Assembly: GCA_964502815.1 (NCBI GenBank)
Contig: CAZCXV010000003.1
Coordinates: 4,694 to 68,693 of the forward strand
DNA length: 64,000 nt
Reading direction: 5' to 3'
Origin: an uncultured Gammaproteobacteria bacterium
GTDB taxonomy: Bacteria > Patescibacteriota > Microgenomatia > UBA8517
The notes under the pieces were generated by a model that worked only from the letters and a program-made list of their open reading frames with translations, was not told the origin of the DNA and ran no database searches. Below are positions 96-51,601 of the stretch, in pieces. Both the position numbers and the translations under genes were made by a program. Numbering within the stretch: the stretch's first letter is position 1; each line of letters opens with the position of its first letter.

Positions 96-578
96 ATGCG
101 AATGGAGGTAAGACTTAACAAACGACAGAAAATAGGACAGCTTTTCCGTACGCTTGGTATTACATCTGACTTGACCCTAAAAAATCTATTTAGCACAACA
201 ATCGCTCAAAAGGTCTTGCTTCATTATCTTGACGAACTTGAAAGCAAACGGTTACCCTTATTAGACTACAAACAGACAAACTCCAACTCATTGTTGACAG
301 ACCTTATAATTAATAACCCGAATATCGGTATACGAAAAACGATACAACTATTTGGATTAAAACAGGCATTTGATAGTACAACCCCTCGTGACCTTAGGAG
401 TATGTTTGGCAGATACGGTCAAAGAAGTTGGTACAGGCTGGTTGCAGAAGCCAAAACAATAAAGCTACCAAATACTAAAAGCCCTCTTGGGATAGTCCGT
501 GAACATTTGACCCGTTTTGAACCCTTAAAACTAGTTGATTTTCAACAACAAATGTTAAATAATGATAAATATAACTAA
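96..578 (+). CDS. Hypothetical protein (element-associated)
   Basis: 160-aa ORF with no recognisable motif. It is immediately upstream of, and overlaps, the Xis-like gene. Confidence 0.35.
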   Translation: MRMEVRLNKRQKIGQLFRTLGITSDLTLKNLFSTTIAQKVLLHYLDELESKRLPLLDYKQTNSNSLLTDLIINNPNIGIRKTIQLFGLKQAFDSTTPRDLRSMFGRYGQRSWYRLVAEAKTIKLPNTKSPLGIVREHLTRFEPLKLVDFQQQMLNNDKYN

Positions 579-756
579 TATGGCAGAAGAACAATACTAT
601 TCTATTGCAGAGGTCTCCAAGATATTAAAGGTCGCTTATTTGACTGTTTACCGATGGATACAGGCTAAGCACCTTGTTGCTCTGAAAGCAGGCAAACAAT
701 ATAGAATTAAAAAGGAAGATTTAGAGACATTCCTTAGAAGATATAGGCATAAATAA
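562..756 (+). CDS. Excisionase/MerR-like helix-turn-helix DNA-binding protein
   Basis: 64-aa protein. YSIAEVSKILKVAYLTVYRWIQ...KAGKQYRIKKEDLETFL matches the excisionase-family HTH pattern. Confidence 0.6.
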   Translation: MINITNMAEEQYYSIAEVSKILKVAYLTVYRWIQAKHLVALKAGKQYRIKKEDLETFLRRYRHK

Positions 757-757
757 T

Positions 758-1360
758 ATGTATTGCAATAATTGTGGAAAACATAATCCAGAGGACAGTA
801 AATTTTGTAAATACTGTGGGGCTGAAATCGTAAGCGTGTCAGCAGACCATAAAGCCGACAGTCGTGCTCAGTCAGAAGTCAAACCATCAGAAGCAGAGCC
901 TACTGGAAAGAATAAGGCAGGACTAACTGGCTGGTTGGCATTAGTTGGATTGGGCTTGATTGTTGGGGTTTTTATACAAGGATATGGGGTGTTGGAATAT
1001 TTGCCATTATTGTCTGAAGTTTACGAAATTCCAGGGTATTCAACTCTTCTTCAACTTGAGTTCCTTTGTAGCATCATATTTACTGGATTTACTGCATATC
1101 TTCTCTACTTATATCTCAAAAAAAACGAGAAGTTTCCAAAGTACTATTTCGTATTCCTAATCGCATCAATCATTTATGTAATACTTGACCATCTGTTTCT
1201 CGCTTCGTTAAGTGCCCCTACCACAGAACTGCAAAATCTTATCAACGACGGTTTATCAGAAAACATGGCAACAGTTAGTAGAACAGTCATAACTTCCATA
1301 ATTTGGGCTTTGTATATCAAAAAATCAAAACAGGTTAAAGCAACATTTACCAATAAATAA
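758..1360 (+). CDS. Zinc-ribbon domain membrane protein (paralog 1 of 5)
   Basis: N-terminal MYCNNCGKHNPEDSKFCKYCGAEI, i.e. CxxC-x10-CxxC, followed by about 4 hydrophobic helices. Confidence 0.6.
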   Translation: MYCNNCGKHNPEDSKFCKYCGAEIVSVSADHKADSRAQSEVKPSEAEPTGKNKAGLTGWLALVGLGLIVGVFIQGYGVLEYLPLLSEVYEIPGYSTLLQLEFLCSIIFTGFTAYLLYLYLKKNEKFPKYYFVFLIASIIYVILDHLFLASLSAPTTELQNLINDGLSENMATVSRTVITSIIWALYIKKSKQVKATFTNK

Positions 1361-1362
1361 AT

Positions 1363-2049
1363 ATGTACTGTAATAAATGTGGTAAACAAATTGAAGAAGA
1401 TAGCATTTTTTGTCAATTCTGTGGCAACAGGATGGCTGACAATAGCCCAGAGCCACAATCAGAAAAAGCCTCTCAGACAGAAAATGTTTCTAAAAAAACA
1501 GTTAATAAAAGTAAATCTGATTTATTGTGGGATAAATTCGCAGAGGTTTATGATGCCAAGGACGACGAGCGAGAAAAATTTAATCAATTATCCTCAGAGT
1601 ACATTTGGGATTTAATTGAACGATTGTACACAAACGCATTTGAAACGTTTATACAGGAGAAAAAAAGCGAGTTAAATTCTCAACCATATAAGGCAATCGA
1701 GGCTTTGAAAAATCTGTATTTATATTCTGTTCTTGGCGGATATAAGTTATGGATTGCAGAAGCCTTATTGAAAGATAGGCAACTAGAAAAGTTTAAGCCT
1801 TTTGACATAGATAAATTTGTAGAAGAATGGAAAGCTAATGATTTCCAAAAAGTAATGAAGAGTATTTCTGATGAAATGAGTGTTTGTATGACGAGGTATC
1901 TTGAACACAGAATAAGTAATTTTCTGGAAAACTCACCTTCAATAAAAGACATACCAAATTCCACAATGGAAGAATTGAAAAGCTCAATAACTTTTCAGAT
2001 TATAAATGGTTACATTGCAGGAGAAGTAGAAGCAAAATTTAGAAAATAA
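1363..2049 (+). CDS. Zinc-ribbon domain protein (paralog 2), soluble C-terminal domain
   Basis: N-terminal MYCNKCGKQIEEDSIFCQFCGNRM. The start is 3 nt after the previous stop. Confidence 0.6.
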   Translation: MYCNKCGKQIEEDSIFCQFCGNRMADNSPEPQSEKASQTENVSKKTVNKSKSDLLWDKFAEVYDAKDDEREKFNQLSSEYIWDLIERLYTNAFETFIQEKKSELNSQPYKAIEALKNLYLYSVLGGYKLWIAEALLKDRQLEKFKPFDIDKFVEEWKANDFQKVMKSISDEMSVCMTRYLEHRISNFLENSPSIKDIPNSTMEELKSSITFQIINGYIAGEVEAKFRK

Positions 2050-2050
2050 T

Positions 2051-2587
2051 ATGATTTGTAATAACTGCCAAACAGAAATACCAGATAACGCAAAGTTCTG
2101 TAATAAATGTGGACAAAAAACAGACGATGCGAATAGGCCTATCTCTAATCCGAAAAAGAATGGGAAATCTATACTAACGGGTGTGGTTTCTGTTATCGTA
2201 TTTTTATTGGCATTTGGTGTGGTTCGCTACCTCACCCAGGAAGTTATTTCACCTTCAGGAAGTAGTACCTCAAAGGCAGAACTTATTAGTCAGACCGTCA
2301 AAGAAGTTAAAGCCAGTATGTCATTACCAAGTCAAGTAGATGAAGCAACAACATTAGTTGATATTACGGCAGAGTTAAACGCTATTCGTTATCACTATGT
2401 TCTTTCAGGTCTTGATACGAATAACTTATCAAACGACTATTTGAAAACCTATTTAGGTACAAGTATTTGTCAAAACAAGGACACTAAAGCACTTCTTAAT
2501 CAAGATATTAATATGGAATATTCATATTCAGTCAAAAGCTCAACCAAAAAATACTTTATAAGTTTTACGAAAACAGATTGTAACTAA
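2051..2587 (+). CDS. Zinc-ribbon domain protein (paralog 3), single TM plus extracytoplasmic domain
   Basis: N-terminal MICNNCQTEIPDNAKFCNKCGQKT, with a TM segment VVSVIVFLLAFGVV. Confidence 0.6.
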   Translation: MICNNCQTEIPDNAKFCNKCGQKTDDANRPISNPKKNGKSILTGVVSVIVFLLAFGVVRYLTQEVISPSGSSTSKAELISQTVKEVKASMSLPSQVDEATTLVDITAELNAIRYHYVLSGLDTNNLSNDYLKTYLGTSICQNKDTKALLNQDINMEYSYSVKSSTKKYFISFTKTDCN

Positions 2588-2596
2588 ATAACTCTT

Positions 2597-2977
2597 ATGG
2601 ATTGTAATAATTGCCAGAACACAAACAGTAAAGATGCAAAGTTTTGCGTACATTGTGGCTCTGAACTTTCAAAAGGCAAAATTGAGGTTGAGGAAGGCTC
2701 AGTTGATAGATATTTTGCAGAACAAAAAGCAAATTTTATTGAAGAAGCTAAAAGACTCGCTGATGGTGAGATGAAACAAGGTGTTGTTTGGTTTGTTATT
2801 GCATTAGTAATAACTTTTGGAAGTTATCTTTTTGCATCCGAAGGTGGAACTTATTACGTTTTTTGGGGTGCGATGATTTACGGCATTTACAGATTAATCC
2901 GAGGCTTTTGGTACAAACTTAATCCAAAATCGCTTCTCAACAAAGCAGAGGAAGAAGCAAAAAAAGAAAAACAATAA
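2597..2977 (+). CDS. Zinc-ribbon domain protein (paralog 4), 2 TM
   Basis: N-terminal MDCNNCQNTNSKDAKFCVHCGSEL. Confidence 0.6.
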   Translation: MDCNNCQNTNSKDAKFCVHCGSELSKGKIEVEEGSVDRYFAEQKANFIEEAKRLADGEMKQGVVWFVIALVITFGSYLFASEGGTYYVFWGAMIYGIYRLIRGFWYKLNPKSLLNKAEEEAKKEKQ

Positions 2978-2978
2978 T

Positions 2979-4298
2979 ATGTATTGTAAAAAATGCGGTA
3001 AGGAAAATCCTGAAAGAAGCAAGTTCTGTCAGCATTGTGGAATACAGTTTAACGAACGAACATCTTCAGCCAATACTGCCAATGAGAGTAGTTCAGTAAA
3101 TGAATACATAGCCGTAAACAACCCTCCATATCCCTACGTTATTTCAATATGGAAACTTATAATAATGTGTGTCTTTACTTTCGGTTTTTATGAAATCTAC
3201 TGGTTTTATAGGCAATGGAAATCCTTCAATACAGTTAATAATTTGAAACACGGAAGTTCTACTCTTTGGGTTTACTCACTCTTTGCTCCTCTATCCTCAT
3301 ATTCATTATTCAAACACATTTCAGGTAAGGTTAAGGAAACAAACAACGACAAAGGGATAGAAGCAGGTGGTCTGGCAATTGTATACTTTTTTCTCACACG
3401 ATTTTGGCTGGGGTTCATACCTCTAATTTCTGTCCAAAATAAAATTAATCATTATTGGGAAAAGAAGTACGGCAATAAGCTTGTTAGGTCTAATTTTGGG
3501 GTTTGGAACTGGATTGTTGTTGTTGCGGTAGCATTAGTGCTCATTTATGCTATCTCTTCCGAAGAAACCACCACTAGCACAACATCAGATACCTCCACAA
3601 GCACATCAGTTGTCGAAAAATATAATCAAGAAGAGATTGTCTCATCTGTAGTAAATATTTTCTGTCCGAGTATTGTTGAAGGAGAAGAAGGAACTGGAGG
3701 CTCTGGAACGATAATTACCAAAGAAGGAATAATTCTTACCAATTCTCATATTATTCCTCAAGATGAGAAATATATTAACGTTGATGAAAAAGGTTGTTTA
3801 GTTATACTACCAAATTCAAGCACAGGACAACCTGAAGAAATGTATTGGGCAACTCCAATAGTTCTTCCTGAAATTAGCGACACATACGACTTAGCATATT
3901 TATCTATTTATGCCGCCTATTACGACGAGGAAAGTAAGGAATATAAAGGAAGTTATCCTCGCACCTTTCCTGCTTTTGATGACAGTAGTAGATGTGTTGA
4001 CGAAAACGTAAAACTTGGAGAAAAAGTGACCATATTCGGATACCCTTCTCTAAGTGGGGGTTATTCTTTAACTGTAACAGACGGACTTGTTAGTAGCTTC
4101 CCTGGTGAAGGTCTTATTGTTACATCTGCGAAAATTAGCGAAGGCAACTCTGGTGGTTTGGCTGTAGATGCAAAAGGTTGTATGTTGGGCATTCCTTCTA
4201 TGATTAGCTATGACGAAACTGAAAGTTTGGGTGTAATTATTTCATCAGATTTAATTGTTAAATTTTCAGATGAAGTCTCAAAATATTTAGAACAATGA
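2979..4298 (+). CDS. Zinc-ribbon / DUF4234-like TM / trypsin-like serine protease fusion (paralog 5)
   Basis: N-terminal MYCKKCGKENPERSKFCQHCGIQF. A YEIYWFYRQW TM region and an S/T-rich linker follow. The C-terminal domain carries GNSGGLAVDAKGCMLGIPS, close to the chymotrypsin-fold GDSGGP motif. Confidence 0.6.
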   Translation: MYCKKCGKENPERSKFCQHCGIQFNERTSSANTANESSSVNEYIAVNNPPYPYVISIWKLIIMCVFTFGFYEIYWFYRQWKSFNTVNNLKHGSSTLWVYSLFAPLSSYSLFKHISGKVKETNNDKGIEAGGLAIVYFFLTRFWLGFIPLISVQNKINHYWEKKYGNKLVRSNFGVWNWIVVVAVALVLIYAISSEETTTSTTSDTSTSTSVVEKYNQEEIVSSVVNIFCPSIVEGEEGTGGSGTIITKEGIILTNSHIIPQDEKYINVDEKGCLVILPNSSTGQPEEMYWATPIVLPEISDTYDLAYLSIYAAYYDEESKEYKGSYPRTFPAFDDSSRCVDENVKLGEKVTIFGYPSLSGGYSLTVTDGLVSSFPGEGLIVTSAKISEGNSGGLAVDAKGCMLGIPSMISYDETESLGVIISSDLIVKFSDEVSKYLEQ

Positions 4299-5767
4299 AA
4301 GCAATAATTTTAGCCAGAGTATCAGATAAAAAACAGGACTCCAACGAAGCTCAAATTCTTCGGGTTTCAGATTACGTTAAAAACAAACAACTAATTGTTT
4401 GGAAAACGTACGAAATAGAAGAAAGCTCAACAAAAGGTGATAGAGAAAAATTTCAAGCTGTAGTTGAAGAAATTCAACAAGCCAACGAGCCTATTGCCCT
4501 TGTTGTAGATACCGTAGATAGACTTCAAAGAAGCTTTAAGGAGTCCGTTCAACTGGACGACCTACGTAAAGCAGGCAAACTCGAAATTCATTTTTACAGA
4601 GAAAGTTTAGTCATTAACCAAAACTCGAATAGCTCTGACCTACTTCGATGGGATATGGCTGTAATGTTTGCTAGAAGTTATGTTCTTCAATTAAGCGATA
4701 ACGTCAAAAGAAAACAAGAGCAAATGCTTAGAAGTGGTATTTACCCAAGCCAACCTCCTTATGGTTACAAGCGGGTTCCTGTTGCAAAAGACAAAACCGA
4801 AATAGTTATTGACGAGTATGCTTCAAAAATTGTCCAAAAAGCCTACGAATGGTACGCAACGAGTAGTTTTTCAATGGAATTATTACGAGAGAAACTAAAA
4901 AAGGAATATGGCGTTAATTGGTCAAAAGGTTTTATAGATAAGGTACTGAAAAACGACTTTTATTACGGTCTTATGACTTGGAATAAAGGGAAATCAAACG
5001 AGAAAACATACACGCACAATTATCCTCATATAATCGAGAAACCTTTGTTCGACCAAGTACAGAAAATAAAAGCAGGATTTAACAAGAAACCTTTTAAGTA
5101 CGCAGGTAAACCTTATATCTACCGAGGATTACTGAGATGTGGTCATTGTGGACTAGCTGTGACCCCAGAAAAGCACAAAGGGCACGTCTATTACCATTGT
5201 ACTCAATACAACGGCAAACACGGGGCTGAATGGCTACGAGAAGAAACAATAACAGAACAAATAGGTAATGTATTTAAAAAGCTACAAGTCCCTGATTACA
5301 TATTAGAGCAGATAGTAACTTCCCTACAGGTTAGTCACGAAGGCAAGGCAGATTTTCGAGAAACCCAATACAAGCAACTTACAGAAGAACATGAGGTATA
5401 TACCAAAAGATTAGAAAAAATCTACATCGATAGACTGGACGGGCGTATTACTGACAATGAGTATGACAAGTTCTATCAGTCATTTCGTGACAAGATATCT
5501 GAAATTGATACCCGACTGGCAATACTCCAAGAAGCAGACGACAACTACTACATCACGGCTAGATACCTGCTAGAACTGGCAAATCGGGCTTATGAGCTTT
5601 TCAAAAGTTCAGAAGTTGAAGAAAGAAGGCGGTTAATTAAGCTCGTGCTATCGAACCTTAGAGTAGAAGACAAAATAGTGCGATTTGATGCGATAAAACC
5701 ATTCGACACAATCTTAAATTATGCCGATAGTCAACTATGGCTCCCCGAACAGGATTTGAACCTGTGA
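4295..5767 (+). CDS. Large serine recombinase (resolvase/invertase N-domain, recombinase domain, C-terminal zinc ribbon)
   Basis: MKAIILARVSDKKQ carries the catalytic Ser region. CGHCG...YYHC forms the zinc ribbon. At 490 aa it is the size of phage-type serine integrases. The ATGA start overlaps the upstream gene. Confidence 0.85.
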   Translation: MKAIILARVSDKKQDSNEAQILRVSDYVKNKQLIVWKTYEIEESSTKGDREKFQAVVEEIQQANEPIALVVDTVDRLQRSFKESVQLDDLRKAGKLEIHFYRESLVINQNSNSSDLLRWDMAVMFARSYVLQLSDNVKRKQEQMLRSGIYPSQPPYGYKRVPVAKDKTEIVIDEYASKIVQKAYEWYATSSFSMELLREKLKKEYGVNWSKGFIDKVLKNDFYYGLMTWNKGKSNEKTYTHNYPHIIEKPLFDQVQKIKAGFNKKPFKYAGKPYIYRGLLRCGHCGLAVTPEKHKGHVYYHCTQYNGKHGAEWLREETITEQIGNVFKKLQVPDYILEQIVTSLQVSHEGKADFRETQYKQLTEEHEVYTKRLEKIYIDRLDGRITDNEYDKFYQSFRDKISEIDTRLAILQEADDNYYITARYLLELANRAYELFKSSEVEERRRLIKLVLSNLRVEDKIVRFDAIKPFDTILNYADSQLWLPEQDLNL

Positions 5768-5812
5768 CCAATCGCTTAACAGGCGAGTGCTCTACCGCTG
5801 AGCTATCGGGGA
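5738..5812 (-). tRNA. tRNA-Asn (anticodon GTT), CCA encoded
   Basis: I folded the cloverleaf manually. The acceptor stem is TCCCCGA/TCGGGGA and the D-stem GCTC/GAGC. The anticodon loop is CTGTTAA and the T-arm is ACAGG-TTCAAAT-CCTGT. Confidence 0.85.
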
Positions 5813-6501: not shown

Positions 6502-6720
6502 ATGAAAAATATAGCAATACTTTTACTCGTTTTTGTTTTAGGAATTTTAGTTTTTGTTGGGCTTACTCTAAATAAAAAGAATCAGGCAGTTGTCCAAAAG
6601 CCAACTGGAATTGAATCTGTTAGTGGATTGGATACGGTTTCAAAACAGCTTGATGGGGAAAACCTTAACCAAATTGATCAAGACTTGGATAGTTTGTCTT
6701 CAGATTCCACCTCTTTTTAA
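6502..6720 (+). CDS. Small membrane-anchored hypothetical protein
   Basis: A single N-terminal TM helix and an acidic tail. Confidence 0.3.
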   Translation: MKNIAILLLVFVLGILVFVGLTLNKKNQAVVQKPTGIESVSGLDTVSKQLDGENLNQIDQDLDSLSSDSTSF

Positions 6721-7094
6721 GGGAACCAGTCAATTGGGGTTTTGTCGTCTGGCTCGCCGTTGTAGTTGACTGTTATTTCTTCACCTTTTTTGATTTGTTT
6801 CAAGGCTCTATAAACCATAGTATTGTCTCTAAAGTTTTGCTTCCAGTCTGCATTTGGAAAGTGTGAATGGTTATACATTGATCCGTAGCCCCAGACTACA
6901 GCTGCACTCCTGGTACTTCTCCAGGGATAGACATATCTAAGCATTTCTGTTTTTTCAACCTGTTTTCTCTCTTTTGGTGTAAGCTTTAAAATCGGAGCCT
7001 TTTCAATTAGATCGCCTTCCTTGAAGTTTTTCATAGCAACAACCCCTTTACCCTTTTTGGGAGAAATATATTTGATTTCAACTTTGTAACGCAT
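6717..7094 (-). CDS. SET-domain protein (putative lysine methyltransferase)
   Basis: GKGVVAMKNFKEGDLI matches the N-SET GxG motif. YNHSHFPNADW matches NHSCxPN. GEEITVNY matches the ELTxDY-like C-terminal motif. The protein is 125 aa. Confidence 0.7.
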   Translation of the reverse strand: MRYKVEIKYISPKKGKGVVAMKNFKEGDLIEKAPILKLTPKERKQVEKTEMLRYVYPWRSTRSAAVVWGYGSMYNHSHFPNADWKQNFRDNTMVYRALKQIKKGEEITVNYNGEPDDKTPIDWFP

Positions 7095-7121
7095 AGGTAG
7101 AATTGGCTAACAGTATCTAGA

Positions 7122-8651
7122 TTACTGTAAATATTGTCTTTTCTCAACCGTTATTTTTCCAATTTCCATAGTTTCAAGTATTTTAGTGTTGGCAAAGTTT
7201 TTCATCCACTTTCCATATCTGTCTATATCTACAACGGGTTCTTTTATCAAGAAAAGTAGTTTGTCGCAACCAAGAGTTGGGGTGTTGTAATTAAACTCTC
7301 CTCCTGGAATATAAACATACTTGTGGGACTTTGGATACACTTCATAGTGGCAGGGAACGTGACCATATTTGTTTTTTCCTCTCCACCAAAATAGATAGTC
7401 ATAGGGATAATCAAAGAAAGAGTTGGTCATATAAATATAGGCATTAAAGCCATTTTCTTCGTTTTTTGAGTAAATCCAGTCAATAACTTGTATCTGATTA
7501 ATCAGAAGCCCAGGATCATTAGAAGGCTTTAGATACTCTATATATCTAGGGATAAAGATTAATAGTTGACTTACAAAAATAACCGCAAGTATCGGAATTG
7601 AGACGTACTTTTTAATTTGCGACAAGAGCATAAAAAGGCTAATAAGTATTAAGGTTGGCAAGAAAACTGTATGCCAGTCTTTCCAACCTTTGTTGGTGGA
7701 GAAGAAAAGATAAGAAACTATGAAAAGAAAACTAGTAAGATAAATAAAACCAACTACATAGCTGTTTTTCTTTTTTGCTCTAGTAAAAAAGAAAATTACT
7801 ATTGTTAGTATCACCAAGCTAACAACTAGGCTTTGGGGGAAAATGGAATCGGTTAGTATTTTGCCAAAATTGGTTAGGTTAGCAAAAAAGTTAGTTCCAG
7901 AAAATATGCCTCTGGCTGATTCCAGTTGATCCGAGTTTCTAAAAACTGAGATTGCCTGTTTTGCTACAATTAAACCGGTAAGCCCCGGGAGTGTATAGGT
8001 GGTAAGGAGATAATTTTTGATTGTTAACCTCTTTTCTATGGTTGACCACAAGCCAAAAGCTGCAAAGAAAATAAACAACGCTGCTGCCGAAGCTAAATCT
8101 GCATTGAAAGAAAGAATAACTGGAATAATACAAAGATAATAATATTTTTTGCTTTTTGTTTCTAAAAATAAAACCAAAAGAAACAAAAGTGTTACTGCTA
8201 GAAAAACAGTTGGAAAGGGATTAAAGGCATATCTGGAGGTGTTAAAAAATAGCCAGAAGAACTGTAAGGCGATACTTACTAGATATGCATAGGTTTTTAA
8301 AATGTGTTTATGGAAAAACAAAAAAACAATTACCATCAGGCAGGTATTTAGGAGAATTAACACAAATACTCCACCTATTGGATGGCCTTGGAAAAGAAAA
8401 TAGCCAGGGGAAAGAAAGTAATACCATAAAGGTCCTGTATAAATGCCTGCAATTGTTGTTTCAGGACCTTTTTTGATTAGTTGTTGTCTTTCGACTATTT
8501 CCCGAACGTAAACTGCGTCCCTGCCTTGATCCATAGTGAAGAAGAAATTATTTCCCAGAATTGGTATGATGCGAATAGTAAATGAAACTAAAACTAAAAA
8601 TATCAAAAACAACTTGGTTTTTGTCGGTAATTGTTTTACTTGGTTTAGCAT
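7122..8651 (-). CDS. Polytopic membrane GT-C-like glycosyltransferase family protein (paralog A)
   Basis: TM1 is followed by a DQGRD loop motif, many TM helices and a C-terminal soluble domain. It is homologous to the divergent neighbour. Confidence 0.5.
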   Translation of the reverse strand: MLNQVKQLPTKTKLFLIFLVLVSFTIRIIPILGNNFFFTMDQGRDAVYVREIVERQQLIKKGPETTIAGIYTGPLWYYFLSPGYFLFQGHPIGGVFVLILLNTCLMVIVFLFFHKHILKTYAYLVSIALQFFWLFFNTSRYAFNPFPTVFLAVTLLFLLVLFLETKSKKYYYLCIIPVILSFNADLASAAALFIFFAAFGLWSTIEKRLTIKNYLLTTYTLPGLTGLIVAKQAISVFRNSDQLESARGIFSGTNFFANLTNFGKILTDSIFPQSLVVSLVILTIVIFFFTRAKKKNSYVVGFIYLTSFLFIVSYLFFSTNKGWKDWHTVFLPTLILISLFMLLSQIKKYVSIPILAVIFVSQLLIFIPRYIEYLKPSNDPGLLINQIQVIDWIYSKNEENGFNAYIYMTNSFFDYPYDYLFWWRGKNKYGHVPCHYEVYPKSHKYVYIPGGEFNYNTPTLGCDKLLFLIKEPVVDIDRYGKWMKNFANTKILETMEIGKITVEKRQYLQ

Positions 8652-10117
8652 TTAGACTTTTAAGTATACAAGACAATAATATAATAATTGGCTTTGATCA
8701 GGCCAGAGACTTATTTTCAGCCAAAACAATTTGGACACATAAAGACTTAAAAATAATCGGACCAACTGCAGGCAATAATACTGACCTACACCATGGCATC
8801 TTGTGGAGTTATTTTATTTTGCCTCCAATTATTCTTTTCGGGGGTAACCCTTATTTTGTATCTTTTTGGAATAGCCTATTTAATTTGGGGGCTGTAGTGT
8901 CAATTTATTTCCTGGCCAAGTCGGTGTTTAAGTCAAGTAAGACAGGATTAATTTCGGCATTTTTGGCTGCAGTCTCAATATATTTCGTTGAGTATTCAAG
9001 TTGGCTGTCAAATCCCTCGCCAACACTTCTAACTGTTCCACTGTTTTTCTTTGGAGTATGGAAATATGCGAGAGAAAAACATTGGGGACTAGTGGTAGCC
9101 TTTATCTCTCTGGGATTGTCTATCCAGTTTGAGCTTTTCTTTATTTACCTTATCCCAATTTTTTTACTTTTGTGTTTTATTTTGAAGTTAAAGTTTCCTG
9201 ATTTAAAAACTTTAACATTTTCAGTTATGGGTTTTTGTATTGTGACTTCAACGATGATTGTTACCGAAATTAAATATAATTTTTCTGGAATAGCTTCAAT
9301 ATTGGGTGCAGGTAGTGATGTCGGTGGAGGAGAAGACAAGCTGGCAAATGTGCCAAAGTATGTAGACAGATTTTTGTTAACTTTTTCCCAAACTCTTTTT
9401 CCACAGAGTTTGGCTTTAGGAAGAATTGTTGGCATATTAACAGTTTTGGCATTCTTATTTTTAGTAATTAAAAATTTTAAAGACAAGAAAAAGGTAAAGC
9501 CGTATGTTTTTATTCTTGTCTATCTTCTTTCCTCTTCAATTATGCTTTTTCTTGGCTATCACGATGCGCCTTGGTTTTTAATTGGCCTGTCTCCAGCAAT
9601 TATTGTTTCAGTAGGTTTTCTGATGTCAAAGATTAATAATAATTATCTTTTGGGGTTAGTTTTATTATTAATTGGAATACTAAACTACCAAACTCTTAGT
9701 GGGACTAAAGGGGTAGGGCAGCCGCTATTGGGGCCAGACAGAGCTTCAATAATGGCAAAACAGCTGGAAACAATTGATTACACCTATCGAGCATCAGAAG
9801 GCGAATCGTTTGCAGTAAATACGCTGACCAACCCTTTGTATATTAATGCAGTTTGGGGTTATCACTATGATTGGTTTGACAAAATTTATGGCTACAAGCC
9901 TTCTTGGGGAGGAGGGGATCAGTTGTATCCATACAACACATTAGAGAGTATGACCGGCAGGGAAAAATATCTTTATTTAATATTTGATACAACACCAAGA
10001 GTTCCCTATGTGCATACACTTTTGATGCAAAAATGGGCAAATGAAAGGAGTGAACTAATTGAAGAAAAGGGATTTGGAGGAATAAAAGTGGAAAAGCGGC
10101 TTTTTACCAGTAGATGA
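8582..10117 (+). CDS. Polytopic membrane GT-C-like glycosyltransferase family protein (paralog B)
   Basis: The GFDQARDLF loop after TM1 aligns with the TMDQGRDAVY loop of paralog A, and the overall architecture is shared. Confidence 0.5.
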   Translation: MKLKLKISKTTWFLSVIVLLGLAFRLLSIQDNNIIIGFDQARDLFSAKTIWTHKDLKIIGPTAGNNTDLHHGILWSYFILPPIILFGGNPYFVSFWNSLFNLGAVVSIYFLAKSVFKSSKTGLISAFLAAVSIYFVEYSSWLSNPSPTLLTVPLFFFGVWKYAREKHWGLVVAFISLGLSIQFELFFIYLIPIFLLLCFILKLKFPDLKTLTFSVMGFCIVTSTMIVTEIKYNFSGIASILGAGSDVGGGEDKLANVPKYVDRFLLTFSQTLFPQSLALGRIVGILTVLAFLFLVIKNFKDKKKVKPYVFILVYLLSSSIMLFLGYHDAPWFLIGLSPAIIVSVGFLMSKINNNYLLGLVLLLIGILNYQTLSGTKGVGQPLLGPDRASIMAKQLETIDYTYRASEGESFAVNTLTNPLYINAVWGYHYDWFDKIYGYKPSWGGGDQLYPYNTLESMTGREKYLYLIFDTTPRVPYVHTLLMQKWANERSELIEEKGFGGIKVEKRLFTSR

Positions 10118-10179
10118 GTTGGCTTCATGTTAAAATTGACAAGTGAAAAAAGGCAACGGTTGCTATTGTTGTTATATTA

Positions 10180-10719
10180 TTGGTTACAGCTGCATTAATC
10201 GTAGGCGCTTACTATTTGGGAAAACAAAGTGACAAGATGAGTATTTCAGAAGCCAACATTTCTTCTCCAACGCCAAATCCAAGCCCATCTGCTATTTCTG
10301 TTACAGCAATTCCAAAACTAACTTCAAAATATGATTATGCTGGCTGGCAAACATATACTGACTCAAAAGCAGGATTTTCGATTGGCTACTCTCCACAAGA
10401 AAAGATATTAGACAAAAAAGAAGGAGAATTTGTCTATTTCAGTAGATACAGAGTAGTCGTCTATTCTGATTACGACGGAGGATCTAGAAGGCAGTGGTTT
10501 AATAGTAAGTTTGATACCAGCACATATCAAGTTGCCTATGAAGACTATAGTGTTTTTAGGGTAAACGCACTAATAATTAAACTAAGTGATCCAGGAAGTA
10601 TGGGTAGTACCAATGTGGTAATTCCAAGGGGGAGAGAGGTCTATCTTTATTCTGCAAGTTCAGGAAGTGAGAGTCTAGATATAACAAAACAAATTATCTC
10701 TACCTTCAAGTTTTTGTAG
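10180..10719 (+). CDS. Hypothetical membrane-anchored protein (probable non-ATG start)
   Basis: N-terminal TM helix and a Ser/Pro-rich linker. The frame is open from 10147 with no in-frame ATG until an internal Met. Confidence 0.35.
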   Translation: MVTAALIVGAYYLGKQSDKMSISEANISSPTPNPSPSAISVTAIPKLTSKYDYAGWQTYTDSKAGFSIGYSPQEKILDKKEGEFVYFSRYRVVVYSDYDGGSRRQWFNSKFDTSTYQVAYEDYSVFRVNALIIKLSDPGSMGSTNVVIPRGREVYLYSASSGSESLDITKQIISTFKFL

Positions 10720-11065
10720 GTTTAAAAAATAGGTTCAAAATAGTTCATCATATTCCTGACGTAACTCCCCTTGGTTGGATCTCTCAAGGAACTCAGTCAC
10801 AGAAATCGCTTTCTCAGGTTTACGAATTTGATTAGTTACGCTAGTTGATGTTCCCGCATCTCCATCAGTAATCCAAGGAATTGAGGTGGTATAGAATCCT
10901 TGGAAATTGGTGAGTTATTGGGATGGACAATAAATGCTGATTCAGTTTCTAGGACATCTTCACTCATGAATATTATTATAGCCTAAAATACCAAAATAGC
11001 TTTTGGCTAATATAAAGACTTTGTCCATCAAGTGGGCAGGCTATTGTGTAATTTGATTTGCCATA

Positions 11066-11905
11066 TTATGGCTTTTTCAGTAAATGCAAATCTTTAGAGT
11101 TTTTTGGAAGAATTACTTTTTTCCCTGTTGTTTGTTCAATTTCTTTTCTGGCATTTCCTGCAATTGAGCCACCCTTAATTGCAACTTTTCTGTTCTCATT
11201 AAAACTTTCTGGTTTGAGAGATTTTGATATTTCAGTAGTTGAAGTTTCAGCAAGCATATTGAGAACCAATTCAAGGTTTGTCATGTTGTCTCTTAAGTTT
11301 TCTTTTTTCAAATTTTTGTAGTTTTTGTATTCTCTAGTTTTCATTCCAGCCCAGGCAAAAGTAATATCGTCAGTAAGGATTGCAAATTCGCCTGAAGTAT
11401 TAACACCCCTTTCTTCCCATTCATCTGTCAAATCTTTTCTGATATCAATGCTTTTTAGTCTTAAATTGACCCATTCCTTGGAGTAGCCCTTCTTTAGGTA
11501 ATAGTTCATTGCTCTTTGGATGGCTTTTTCTGGATCATCTACTTCTTCGACTCTTTCATAGCCAACGCGAGCCAGCCACAACTTAAATGGTTCTGCATTA
11601 GGAGAGGGGATAGATTGAATTATTCTAAACATTGTTTCTGTGTCTGCTGCATCGGTTAGGTAATATTTACCATCTGAAGATTGCATTTTCAGTTGTACGA
11701 TTTTTTCGTACGACTGACTACCTTCATTTTTCAGTTTTGTTTTTAGATCTGACCAATATCTTTTAGGAACACTGCTTCCAGAAAGAATGCCTATAACATC
11801 AATCACAGAAAAATACCATTCTTCTTTGATATGGTCCCAATATCTTCTTATCTTGTTTCCTTCAAACAAAACAATTTTTGCCGAATCTTTATGTTTACTA
11901 TCCAT
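11066..11905 (-). CDS. Bro-N / DinD-like DNA-damage-inducible family protein (paralog 1)
   Basis: The N-terminal region FEGNKIRRYWDHIKEEWYFSVIDVIGIL is Bro-N-like. The central block FRIIQSIPSPNAEPFKLWLARVGYERVEE recurs in the 41179..42018 paralog. The C-terminal region is similar to the dinD gene at 63005. Confidence 0.65.
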   Translation of the reverse strand: MDSKHKDSAKIVLFEGNKIRRYWDHIKEEWYFSVIDVIGILSGSSVPKRYWSDLKTKLKNEGSQSYEKIVQLKMQSSDGKYYLTDAADTETMFRIIQSIPSPNAEPFKLWLARVGYERVEEVDDPEKAIQRAMNYYLKKGYSKEWVNLRLKSIDIRKDLTDEWEERGVNTSGEFAILTDDITFAWAGMKTREYKNYKNLKKENLRDNMTNLELVLNMLAETSTTEISKSLKPESFNENRKVAIKGGSIAGNARKEIEQTTGKKVILPKNSKDLHLLKKP

Positions 11906-12119: not shown

Positions 12120-12563
12120 AAGACAATAATCCTCAATACACATCTTGTCGGCACGGTCGATGAAGGCGCAGGCAGGCGTGCGATTGAAGAAGTTAGCATT
12201 GCTGAAGCCAAAGAATATATTGAGGAAGTAAAGCTTTACTTGGTTACCTACGGAGGCGACCTTCTGTATGTATTTGCCCTGTATGACCATATTATTTCTT
12301 CCAAAAAACCAGTGGATATTGTTGCCGAGGGCGTATGTATGTCGGCCGGGGTGATGATCTTGCAGGTTGCAAGAAGAAGGTATGCGACTCCCACTCTTTA
12401 TTTATGGTTCACCCATCAATCAATATTGTCGAAGAGAAGTCCTACCAGAAAATGTCTTTCTGTCTATAAGGCCTGCAGATTTGGCATGTATGGCTTAATT
12501 GATGAAGTTATAAATTTTCCCACTCTTTCAAAAGATCTACCCACAAGCTTTTCAAAAAACTAA
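12120..12563 (+). pseudogene. ClpP-family serine peptidase remnant (N-terminally truncated, frameshifted)
   Basis: KLYLVTYGGDLLYVFALYDHI...VDIVAEGVCMSAGVMIL...RRRYATPTLYLWFTHQS...YGLIDEVI aligns block-wise to ClpP (IYLYINSPGG..., the Ser motif, MIHQP, GLVDSI). There is no start Met and a frame break near 12430. Local GC is elevated. Confidence 0.5.
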
Positions 12564-13398
12564 GCCCTTTTGGTTTGAGAATTTCCTTTTTATTTTTCTG
12601 GTTGGTGATTTTATTTATCGAGCTTTGTATCCAGGCCAGAGATTCTTTTTTTGTTTTGCCATCAAAAAGGTGTCCACCCATTTCATAGTCAGGCAGTTTG
12701 GTGAATTTATCTATTTTTAAGACTCTGTTCAAATTTAAGAGGGCGTATTGTCGTATTGATTTTAGCGTCCCTTCCTTTTTAAATCTCCGAAGTGAAAAGT
12801 AGTAGTAATTGTCTCTGGAAATTTTAAAATTGAAACCTTCTTTTACCGCTCTTTCGAGTAAATCTGTGTCCTCTGCAAACTTCAGATTTTCATCAAAACC
12901 TTCTATTTTTTCAAATACACTTTTTCTGATGCCAATAAAAGCTCCAACAGAAGATGGAGAGCCAAAGAAGTTTGTAAACTCAAAAATACTGTTCAGGCCA
13001 ATGGCAATTGCTTTATCGGTCTGAAGCTTTGAATCCGTCTTTATCCAAGTAGTAAGAAGGTCTGTCTTATCCTTTTCAAAAGCAGCACACACTTTCGCAA
13101 TAAATATTTTTGGGATTTTAGTATCAGCGTCAAAAAAGATTAAAATATCTCCCTTGGCATTTTTTGCTCCCAAGTTTCTTTGAAAAGAGACATTTCTTTT
13201 ATCAGCTTTCAAGGTTTTGATTTTTAACCTATTATTAAAAGATGTTGCTTTGGCTAAAGTTTTGTCTTCGCTTTGGCCGTCAACAACAATTACCTCAAAA
13301 TCCTTAAGAGTTTGCTTTTCAAGGTTAGTAAGAAGCTTGGGCAAATATTTTTCCTCGTTAAGGCAGGGGATAACTATTGAGAAATGTGGATTGGCCAT
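12508..13398 (-). CDS. Family 2 glycosyltransferase
   Basis: FSIVIPCLNEEKYL...VIVVDGQSED...FFDADT are the GT2 DxD-type motifs. Confidence 0.8.
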   Translation of the reverse strand: MANPHFSIVIPCLNEEKYLPKLLTNLEKQTLKDFEVIVVDGQSEDKTLAKATSFNNRLKIKTLKADKRNVSFQRNLGAKNAKGDILIFFDADTKIPKIFIAKVCAAFEKDKTDLLTTWIKTDSKLQTDKAIAIGLNSIFEFTNFFGSPSSVGAFIGIRKSVFEKIEGFDENLKFAEDTDLLERAVKEGFNFKISRDNYYYFSLRRFKKEGTLKSIRQYALLNLNRVLKIDKFTKLPDYEMGGHLFDGKTKKESLAWIQSSINKITNQKNKKEILKPKGLSFLKSLWVDLLKEWENL

Positions 13399-36059: not shown

Positions 36060-36088
36060 GAATCTCTAAATTATACTATACTTATATT

Positions 36089-42018: not shown

Positions 42019-42040
42019 ATTATTCTATCTATACTAGATT

Positions 42041-48702: not shown

Positions 48703-48774
48703 GGGCCTGTCGTTCAACGGTTAGGACGGGTCTCTTATAAAGACCAAACGATAGTTCGACTCTATCCAGGCCCA
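48703..48774 (+). tRNA. tRNA with anticodon UAU (nominally Ile, reading AUA)
   Basis: Manual cloverleaf: acceptor GGGCCTG/CAGGCCC, D-stem GTTC/GGAC, anticodon stem GGTCT/AGACC, loop CTTATAA, T-arm GATAG-TTCGACT-CTATC, 4-nt variable loop. Confidence 0.7.
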
Positions 48775-48808
48775 CAGATTTGAAAAAAAAGGATTGTCGG
48801 GGATGGCA

Positions 48809-51261: not shown

Positions 51262-51291
51262 TAACTTAAACTCCACTTATTTAGTTTTGTG

Positions 51292-51361
51292 TTGCGGGGC
51301 TGGGAGTTGAACCCAGCCTGAAAGATTATGAGCCTTTCGTGCAGCCGTACACTACCCCGCA
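51292..51361 (-). tRNA. tRNA anticodon CAU (elongator Met or Ile2-lysidine type; not initiator-like)
   Basis: Acceptor TGCGGGG/CCCCGCA (fully paired). Anticodon stem AAAGG/TCTTT with loop CTCATAA. T-arm CTGGG-TTCAACT-CCCAG. Confidence 0.7.
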
Positions 51362-51478: not shown

Positions 51479-51550
51479 GCCAGGGTAGCTCAATGGTGGA
51501 GCAGCAGATTCATAAACTGCAGGTTAAGAGTTCGATCCTCTTCCCTGGTA
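51479..51550 (+). tRNA. tRNA anticodon CAU (Met; G1-U72 wobble at the acceptor end)
   Basis: Acceptor GCCAGGG/CCCTGGT, D-stem GCTC/GAGC, anticodon loop TTCATAA, T-arm AAGAG-TTCGATC-CTCTT. Confidence 0.7.
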
Positions 51551-51601
51551 CTTAAAGATTAATTCCTTTCTTTTTAGCTTCGAAAGACTTAGAATACAAA
51601 T

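Follow-up and report, generated by a model that had tools for sequence, protein, structure and literature searches.

Two divergent GT-C-fold glycosyltransferase paralogs of a Patescibacteria lineage probably share 70 bp of coding sequence at their 5′ ends

The 64,000-nucleotide (nt) stretch of contig CAZCXV010000003.1 analysed here, called the window throughout, comes from a Patescibacteria genome and carries, between positions 7122 and 10117, two divergent genes for predicted membrane proteins, A and B, whose 5′ ends run across each other on opposite strands. With reading frames given canonical start codons only (ATG, GTG or TTG), the locus consists of the following elements, with protein lengths in amino acids (aa).

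7122..8651, minus strand: gene A, a predicted GT-C-fold membrane glycosyltransferase paralog of 509 aa, with start ATG 8651 and N-terminus MLNQVKQLPTKTKLFLIFLVLV
8582..10117, plus strand: gene B, a predicted GT-C-fold membrane glycosyltransferase paralog of 511 aa, with start ATG 8582 and N-terminus MKLKLKISKTTWFLSVIVLLGL
8582..8651, both strands: putative doubly coding segment of 70 bp, read as codons 1-24 of B (plus strand) and of A (minus strand)

An earlier note on this DNA had given the same coordinates, strands and 5′ overlap of the two open reading frames (ORFs), and an ORF check of the sequence reproduces them exactly. Both ORFs are intact in the window, full length and co-linear with their families, and an in-frame TAA lies directly 5′ of each ATG (A 8651, B 8582). 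The two frames meet in a phase where first codon positions lie opposite each other, and where the second positions of each frame lie opposite the third positions of the other; across the 70 bp, there is no site that is silent in both frames at once. The joint explanation that best fits the evidence presented below, and probably the correct one, is that A and B are functional GT-C paralogs, arranged head-to-head, with a genuine 70-bp coding overlap and with promoters located in each other's codons.

Both proteins are built in the same order, from a Lys-containing tail through a hydrophobic first transmembrane helix (TM1) to the motif MDQGRD (A residues 40-45) or FDQARD (B residues 38-43). The helix boundaries are those of AlphaFold2 (AF2) models, whose confidence is expressed as the predicted local distance difference test (pLDDT).

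8550..8624, minus strand: A TM1 helix region, residues 10-34, an AF2 helix with high pLDDT; nearly every member of the family has TM1
8606..8677, plus strand: B TM1 helix region, residues 9-32, from the AF2 helix and family N-termini
8517..8531, minus strand: A DQGRD motif, residues 41-45, in the putative catalytic first external loop just after TM1
8696..8710, plus strand: B DQARD motif, residues 39-43, just after TM1

In the A family, D41 is invariant and Q42, G43 and D45 are nearly so, while D39, Q40, R42 and D43 of B are invariant in 50 homologs. The invariant D41 of A and D39/D43 of B sit 5-7 residues past the modelled TM1, and the DQ[AG]RD loop after TM1, which had been noticed in the two proteins, proves to be a fixed or nearly fixed feature of each family. 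BLASTP aligns A residues 10-505 to B residues 8-506 with 24% identity (E 3e-16), and this full-length, co-linear alignment bears out their description as paralogs.

At the DNA level, Lys codons (AAR) of one tail face Phe/Leu codons (YTT) of the partner's TM1. The segment had been described as quasi-palindromic, and 36 of its 70 positions are indeed self-complementary, as compared to 22 ± 5 in full shuffles (p = 0.007). That much of the description holds, but the quasi-palindrome is mostly a compositional skew from A to T; a strong palindrome beyond this skew was rejected, as separate shuffling of the A-rich and T-rich halves already yields 27 ± 5 self-complementary positions (p = 0.05).

The A and B families are large and confined to Patescibacteria, Microgenomates, Woesebacteria, Daviesbacteria and similar metagenome-assembled genomes (179 B homologs were found), and many homologs of both proteins have a precomputed PF13231 match or are named GT39 or ArnT-like. 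B itself scores 25.9 bits against Pfam PMT_2 (PF13231), which is below the gathering threshold of 26.1 bits, A has no Pfam match, and neither protein was matched in a scan of NCBIfam. On these scores, A and B are best read as distant relatives of PMT_2 / GT39-like proteins, not as clear members. The fold was assigned from the AF2 models (pLDDT 93.6 for A and 91.8 for B), because searching PDB sequences with profiles of the two families yielded nothing meaningful. The significant fold matches of both models in the PDB are all to the GT-C superfamily, and both models have a multi-pass GT-C architecture. In particular, the top 34 Foldseek matches of the B model are all GT-C-superfamily folds, mostly GT-C enzymes together with the GT-C-like GPI-transamidase subunit PIGU/GAB1, and include STT3 (E 2e-8) and ArnT (TM-score 0.56). 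The models confidently predict a GT-C fold for A and B, and together with the position of B near the PMT_2 cut-off they agree with the label 'GT-C-like' of the earlier note.

The likeness to the ArnT/PMT-type GT-C_A enzymes (GT39, GT83; PMT_2) lies in the predicted multi-transmembrane GT-C fold, in a putative Asp-containing first external loop after TM1 and in a C-terminal soluble domain; the difference lies in the marginal sequence similarity. As part of the joint explanation, A and B would be two functional, anciently diverged GT-C-fold paralogs, probably dependent on polyprenyl-phosphate sugars and ArnT/PMT-like.

Both genes contain further canonical start codons, all in frame (A TTG 8612 at codon 14, A TTG 8606 at codon 16 and B TTG 8621 at codon 14), and the overlap is lost only if B starts at 8621 together with A at 8612 or 8606. 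These codons open two alternatives. According to the first, the starts are over-extended and both genes begin at TTG, with a spacer of 8-14 bp and no coding overlap; the upstream frames would be open by chance, and the conservation of the segment would result from the coding constraint of the other gene combined with promoter DNA. There is precedent for such errors, as Palleja et al. judged all 75 of the 75 divergent overlaps longer than 60 bp that they examined to be 5′-extension misannotations, and proposed flagging every such case (PMC2478687). According to the second, only one gene uses its long start (B 8582 with A TTG 8612, or A 8651 with B TTG 8621), leaving an overlap of 25-31 bp.

The protein features argue against both alternatives. 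The modelled TM1 begins at residue 10 in A and at residue 9 in B, so that both helices reach upstream of codon 14, and starting both genes at TTG would clip 4-5 residues from the modelled helices and strip every N-terminal positive charge. Moreover, the long starts place the putative catalytic Asp at a distance of 41 in A (family mode 35) and 39 in B (family mode 33), whereas the TTG starts at codon 14 shorten these distances to 28 and 26, values at the very low end of the distribution in both families. The earlier note had considered the overlap real on the grounds that TM1 is needed, and the extent of the modelled helices leads to the same conclusion, as do the conserved geometry and the dual-coding pattern described next.

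The arrangement was compared in three lineages: the window, L001 and the H41 genome (loci L002-L005), whose contigs come from Hainich groundwater. The L001 and H41 lineages, at 60-64% aa identity, keep the 70-bp head-to-head geometry, and the N-terminal peptides are conserved across all three. In L001, the A frame is open to a GTG homologous to 8651 (N-terminus MLNQLKLLPAKSKLLLILLILFSLAIRIIPILHGNFFFTMDQ, 509 aa) and overlaps a 510-aa B ortholog by exactly 70 bp; the H41 genome has A with the same GTG (N-terminus MLNQLKKLPLIAKLLL). Both frames are intact and conserved with the same overlap, and in H41 the B gene is interrupted by a probable insertion sequence (IS) 3′ of the overlap. The A start occupies one site in the three lineages, as ATG in the window and GTG in L001 and H41, which speaks against over-extension, and the B start is ATG in all three, so that both long start codons are conserved, contrary to what a partial overlap would predict.

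The earlier note had named a comparison of ortholog starts as a way to expose a false overlap. The two closest A orthologs (P0002 and P0003; 62-64% identity) are publicly annotated as 470-aa proteins that begin at Met40, which seems to expose one, but the DNA of L001 and H41 keeps the long start. Met40 was rejected as the start of A, as it would remove TM1 and the family-invariant F38 and T39, and Met40 is not itself conserved in the family. These annotations probably reflect gene callers that avoid 5′-5′ overlaps.

Across 80 genome loci with A-family genes, the head-to-head A/B pair occurs only in the window, L001 and H41, and a scan of metagenome contigs (6 loci) added only L086, a contig of the same strain as the window; beyond the known H41 contig and L086, the wider search of genome and metagenome contigs revealed no new member of the overlap clade. 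No B gene lies within 4 kb of the more distant A orthologs (40-48% identity). In Daviesbacteria, about 15 loci have A in tandem behind B, with both genes in the same orientation and nearly abutting. Overall, the A and B lineages are old and repeatedly linked, the orientation in Daviesbacteria differs from that of the window clade, and the 70-bp arrangement occurs only in a narrow, Microgenomates-related clade of Patescibacteria. The loci of the Daviesbacteria tandem type are L030, L033, L034, L038, L040, L041, L043, L045, L048, L052, L053, L060, L073, L077 and L082.

A codon-position test compared the identity per codon position in the overlap (24 codons) to that in the rest of the gene, pairwise among the three lineages. 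Between the window and L001, the third positions of B are identical in 23 of the 24 overlap codons, as compared to 44% of the other 485 codons (p = 1.9e-7). For A, third positions are identical in 19/24 codons between the window and L001 (48% elsewhere; p = 0.0025), in 20/24 between the window and H41, and in 21/24 between L001 and H41 (p = 6e-4), with 48-53% identity elsewhere across the A comparisons. Overall, third-position identity is 0.79-0.96 inside the overlap versus 0.44-0.53 outside it, while first positions, which are common to both frames, are not raised (0.62 in the overlap versus 0.64-0.69); the third positions of either frame match the second positions of the other in their degree of conservation. 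The effect is confined to the overlap, as no significant third-position excess is seen in the 24 codons that follow it in either gene, and it is missing from a control set of 15 A-family ortholog pairs (50-72% identity, no overlapping partner), where third-position identity is 0.39 in codons 2-24 (maximum 0.57) versus 0.38 elsewhere. Conservation that is three-periodic and non-uniform indicates a coding constraint, as opposed to the uniform pattern expected of a regulatory DNA element, and here it suggests, within a small sample of 24 codons and three lineages, that both frames of the overlap are under purifying selection.

The same test addresses the codons that the two alternatives would remove. 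B codons 11-24, whose third positions are the second positions of A codons 1-13, are identical at 13 of 14 third positions (p = 3.5e-4); this periodicity opposite the 13 disputed codons, with first positions not raised and no such effect in the control pairs, argues against over-extended starts. A codons 11-24, the counterpart that probes B codons 1-13, are identical at 10/14, 12/14 and 12/14 third positions (p = 0.08, 0.015 and 0.016), and this weaker support for the B codons is a point in favour of a partial overlap.

The start signals of the genome supply a further line of evidence. Shine-Dalgarno (SD)-like motifs precede 6 of the 54 window ORFs, equal to the 12% background. In contrast, a TAnnnT hexamer ends 4-13 nt before 31 of the 54 starts versus a 19% background, and a TGn-extended hexamer precedes 11 of them versus a 1.3% background; the spacing from hexamer to start peaks at 6 and 11 nt. 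From these counts we infer that the genome is SD-free and that most of its transcription units start with a -10 box near the start codon, in a spacing pattern that implies leaderless or near-leaderless mRNAs (with a leader of ~4 nt). Leaderless-mRNA organisation has examples in Mycobacterium, Deinococcus and many archaea. The likeness to these systems is a -10 box located a few nt 5′ of the start codon and the lack of an SD, and the difference is that the organisation is deduced here from motif statistics alone; in the library searched, there was no report of leaderless translation or leaderless organisation in the Candidate Phyla Radiation (CPR)/Patescibacteria. At the A/B locus, two candidate elements match this pattern.

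8562..8570, plus strand: candidate extended -10 element of B, TGgTATGAT, 11 nt 5′ of ATG 8582; invariant in the window, L001 and H41
8663..8668, minus strand: candidate -10 element of A, TATACT, 11 nt 5′ of ATG 8651; TATACT, 11 nt and ATG/GTG follow one another in all three lineages

The B element falls on A codons I28-I29-P30 (ATC ATA CCA) and the A element on B codons S28-I29 (AGT ATA), and their positions are symmetrical because 70 + 11 = 81 nt, or 27 codons. As the key bases of each -10 box occupy first and second positions of the partner's codons, hardly any substitution in them would be fully synonymous for the partner. The expectation that each promoter would lie inside the other gene is consistent with these candidate boxes, which sit within the partner's TM1 and loop codons at a conserved 11-nt spacing. 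The TTG alternatives (A 8612/8606, B 8621) have no -10 hexamer upstream, whereas both long starts have the standard signal of the genome, which speaks against over-extension; the identical spacing of a conserved -10 box at both long starts likewise speaks against a partial overlap. Further, A-family orthologs of other genomes have the same leaderless signature at family-consistent starts. When 6900-10400 was scanned for generic sigma-70 promoters (-35/-10) and for terminators, the counts were at or below shuffle expectation, and the genome-specific -10 spacing analysis was used in place of the generic promoter scan; an Rfam scan of the window detected four tRNAs only and nothing at the A/B locus. 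Elsewhere in the window, divergent pairs at 36060-36088 and 42019-42040 are spaced by just 29 and 22 bp, and the -10 boxes of the two strands interleave within these spacers.

Several observations weigh against two long starts and a working overlap. Both N-termini are ~6 residues longer than the family modes, all three lineages keep an in-frame TTG at A codon 16, the window and L001 share the TTG at B codon 14 (H41 has TTA), and a few annotated homologs have short N-termini, with only 25-28 residues before the putative catalytic Asp. The conserved TTGs and the short homologs are, beside the survey precedent, what over-extension has in its favour. In addition, the arrangement is known from three lineages only, the codon statistics come from 24 codons in pairwise comparisons that are not independent, and the -10 boxes sit on codons of conserved residues (R-I-I-P in A and S-I in B), so that protein constraint alone explains part of their conservation. 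Set against the evidence on helices, start-to-Asp distances, start codons, third positions and -10 boxes, over-extension of both starts is quite improbable, and a partial overlap is unlikely.

It also weighs against a working overlap that one partner is disrupted in some relatives, with B broken by an IS-like insertion in the H41 genome and A carrying frameshifting deletions in the same-strain metagenome contig L086. These disruptions are what would be expected if one ORF were a decaying pseudogene and the overlap a relic without dual function, a possibility that the earlier note had also raised. In the window, though, the full-length ORFs retain all invariant residues and yield confident models, and A and B are also intact in L001 (60-62% identity), with normal ratios of first-, second- and third-position conservation over the whole gene; decay of either gene is very improbable. 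Overall, because of the conserved layout, the dual-coding pattern, the negative control, the start signals and the protein features (TM1 extent and N-terminal lengths), we take the overlap to be real: a genuine, full 70-bp dual-coding overlap of the A and B 5′ ends is probable, with the actual transcription and translation starts of both genes deduced from the sequence.

The layout suggests how two genes could share this DNA. The Lys-rich cytoplasmic tail of each protein, with its A-rich codons, would be encoded opposite the first half of the partner's TM1, with its T-rich codons. Without an SD, and with the -10 box close to the start, a promoter would need only ~9 nt and could ride on the partner's conserved codons: the B promoter (8562-8570) on A codons 28-30, and the A promoter (8663-8668) on B codons 28-29, so that the two would stand face-to-face. 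If transcription starts ~7 nt past each hexamer, the starts would lie near 8577-8578 and 8655-8656, ~78 bp apart, and the A and B mRNAs would have ~78 nt of perfectly complementary 5′ sequence covering both start codons. The two genes may then damp each other by promoter occlusion, 'sitting-duck' collision and antisense pairing, and a 5′ RNA duplex should block initiation on leaderless mRNAs.

Such mutual interference between the A and B promoters would follow by analogy to known systems. Occlusion, sitting-duck collisions and antisense effects are described for scbA/scbR (53 bp), phage 186 pR/pL and pCF10 PQ/PX (PMC3134472). The A/B locus would resemble these systems, from Streptomyces, coliphage 186 and Enterococcus respectively, in having facing promoters tens of bp apart (53 bp in scbA/scbR), a promoter inside the partner's transcribed region and complementary 5′ transcript ends. 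It differs in that they involve a regulator and their behaviour was shown experimentally, whereas A and B are enzyme paralogs with no evident regulator and their interference is an expectation. The overlap described in scbA/scbR is one of transcripts and promoters, whereas that of A and B is in coding sequence; the coding sequences of scbA/scbR, 186 pR/pL and pCF10 PQ/PX are not known to overlap.

It is conceivable, though unlikely, that the overlap is a selected device, where face-to-face leaderless promoters in the partner's TM1 codons make the expression of the two paralogs mutually exclusive, via occlusion or collision together with the 5′ duplex, and act as a protein-free toggle that diversifies surface glycosylation in a population of an ultra-small episymbiotic bacterium. 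If so, the recurrent knock-outs of one partner (the IS in B and the indels in A) would be a hard-wired version of the same choice. With promoters that seldom fire, the damping may instead be weak or neutral, and genome compaction could just as well have led to this layout as a near-neutral end state. Moreover, if A and B act together, as their tandem order in Daviesbacteria suggests, mutual repression would be counter-productive, which favours the neutral reading and is a further point against the toggle.

Two neighbouring genes recur beside the pair.

6717..7094, minus strand: SET-domain gene directly 3′ of A (Pfam SET 59.6 bits; synteny)
12508..13398, minus strand: GT2 glycosyltransferase (Pfam Glycos_transf_2 94.7 bits), likely a polyprenyl-phosphate sugar synthase

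All three lineages have the small SET-domain gene directly 3′ of A and in the same orientation (L001 7425-7826; L002 1578-1973; H41 loci L002-L004), and it may be co-transcribed with A. In L001 and L091, the GT2 gene adjoins B, and its product could supply the polyprenyl-phosphate sugar that A and B would use as donor; in the window, two inserted genes lie between B and GT2. This region of the window (10180-11905) contains a 179-aa ORF and a gene with a Bro-N domain, which is a phage-associated domain, and it is likely an insertion, given that nothing separates B from GT2 in L001 and L091.

In H41-bin046 / ERR3858121 (L003 1-27; L092 1-24; L091 1-49), an insertion directly behind codon 35 (..NNII) splits B; its ends are imperfect inverted repeats (GCTTTACCC-N6-CTGGACAA), and it is probably a multicopy IS element because all assemblies break there. 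Its site corresponds to the -35 region of A's putative promoter. Contig L086 (Ga0208375_1031766) matches window 6889-9194 with 99.4-100% identity, as expected of the same strain; its gene A is frameshifted by a gap of 10 nt and a deletion of ~46 nt (window 7349-7394). The cause is either a heterogeneous population in which A has been knocked out or a misassembly.

Further away, a large serine recombinase gene (Resolvase, Recombinase and Zn-ribbon) at 4295-5767 on the plus strand overlaps the 3′ part of a tRNA-Asn gene at 5738-5812 on the minus strand, suggesting an integrated mobile element upstream, where genes at 96-4298 include a zinc-ribbon/trypsin-like peptidase. The window also contains a tRNA-Ile with anticodon TAT (48703-48775), which is uncommon in bacteria, where AUA is usually read by a lysidine-modified CAU tRNA, and two tRNA-Met(CAT) genes (51291-51361, minus strand; 51479-51551, plus strand).

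Divergent overlaps make up ~1% of annotated overlaps, and 73% of those in a recent large survey were 2-bp 'AT' start-start overlaps (bioRxiv 10.64898/2026.09.10.750558). The A/B pair shares the geometry of this recognised class, in which coding sequences on opposite strands share their start regions, and differs in that its 70 bp are backed by conserved geometry, a dual-coding pattern and start signals, and in that A and B are paralogs that code one structural element, the tail plus TM1, from common DNA. The locus is an evidence-backed exception to the misannotation rule; it combines overlapping genes with putative face-to-face promoters, both of a known kind, and is no new kind of system. It stands at the far end of a general trend towards compact divergent 5′ regions.

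Long 5′-5′ coding overlaps are usually handled as annotation errors, and the A/B pair provides a comparatively validated counter-example. It suggests that such overlaps can exist in this organism where SD-free, leaderless genes with -10-only promoters need almost no private upstream DNA, and that an N-terminus composed of a Lys-rich tail plus a hydrophobic helix is reverse-complement compatible with itself. The public Met40 annotation of A deletes the first transmembrane helix in the two closest genomes, and start calling in Patescibacteria may systematically clip N-termini at divergent pairs. For the biology of these bacteria, A and B offer a testable case of enzyme paralogs wired face-to-face.

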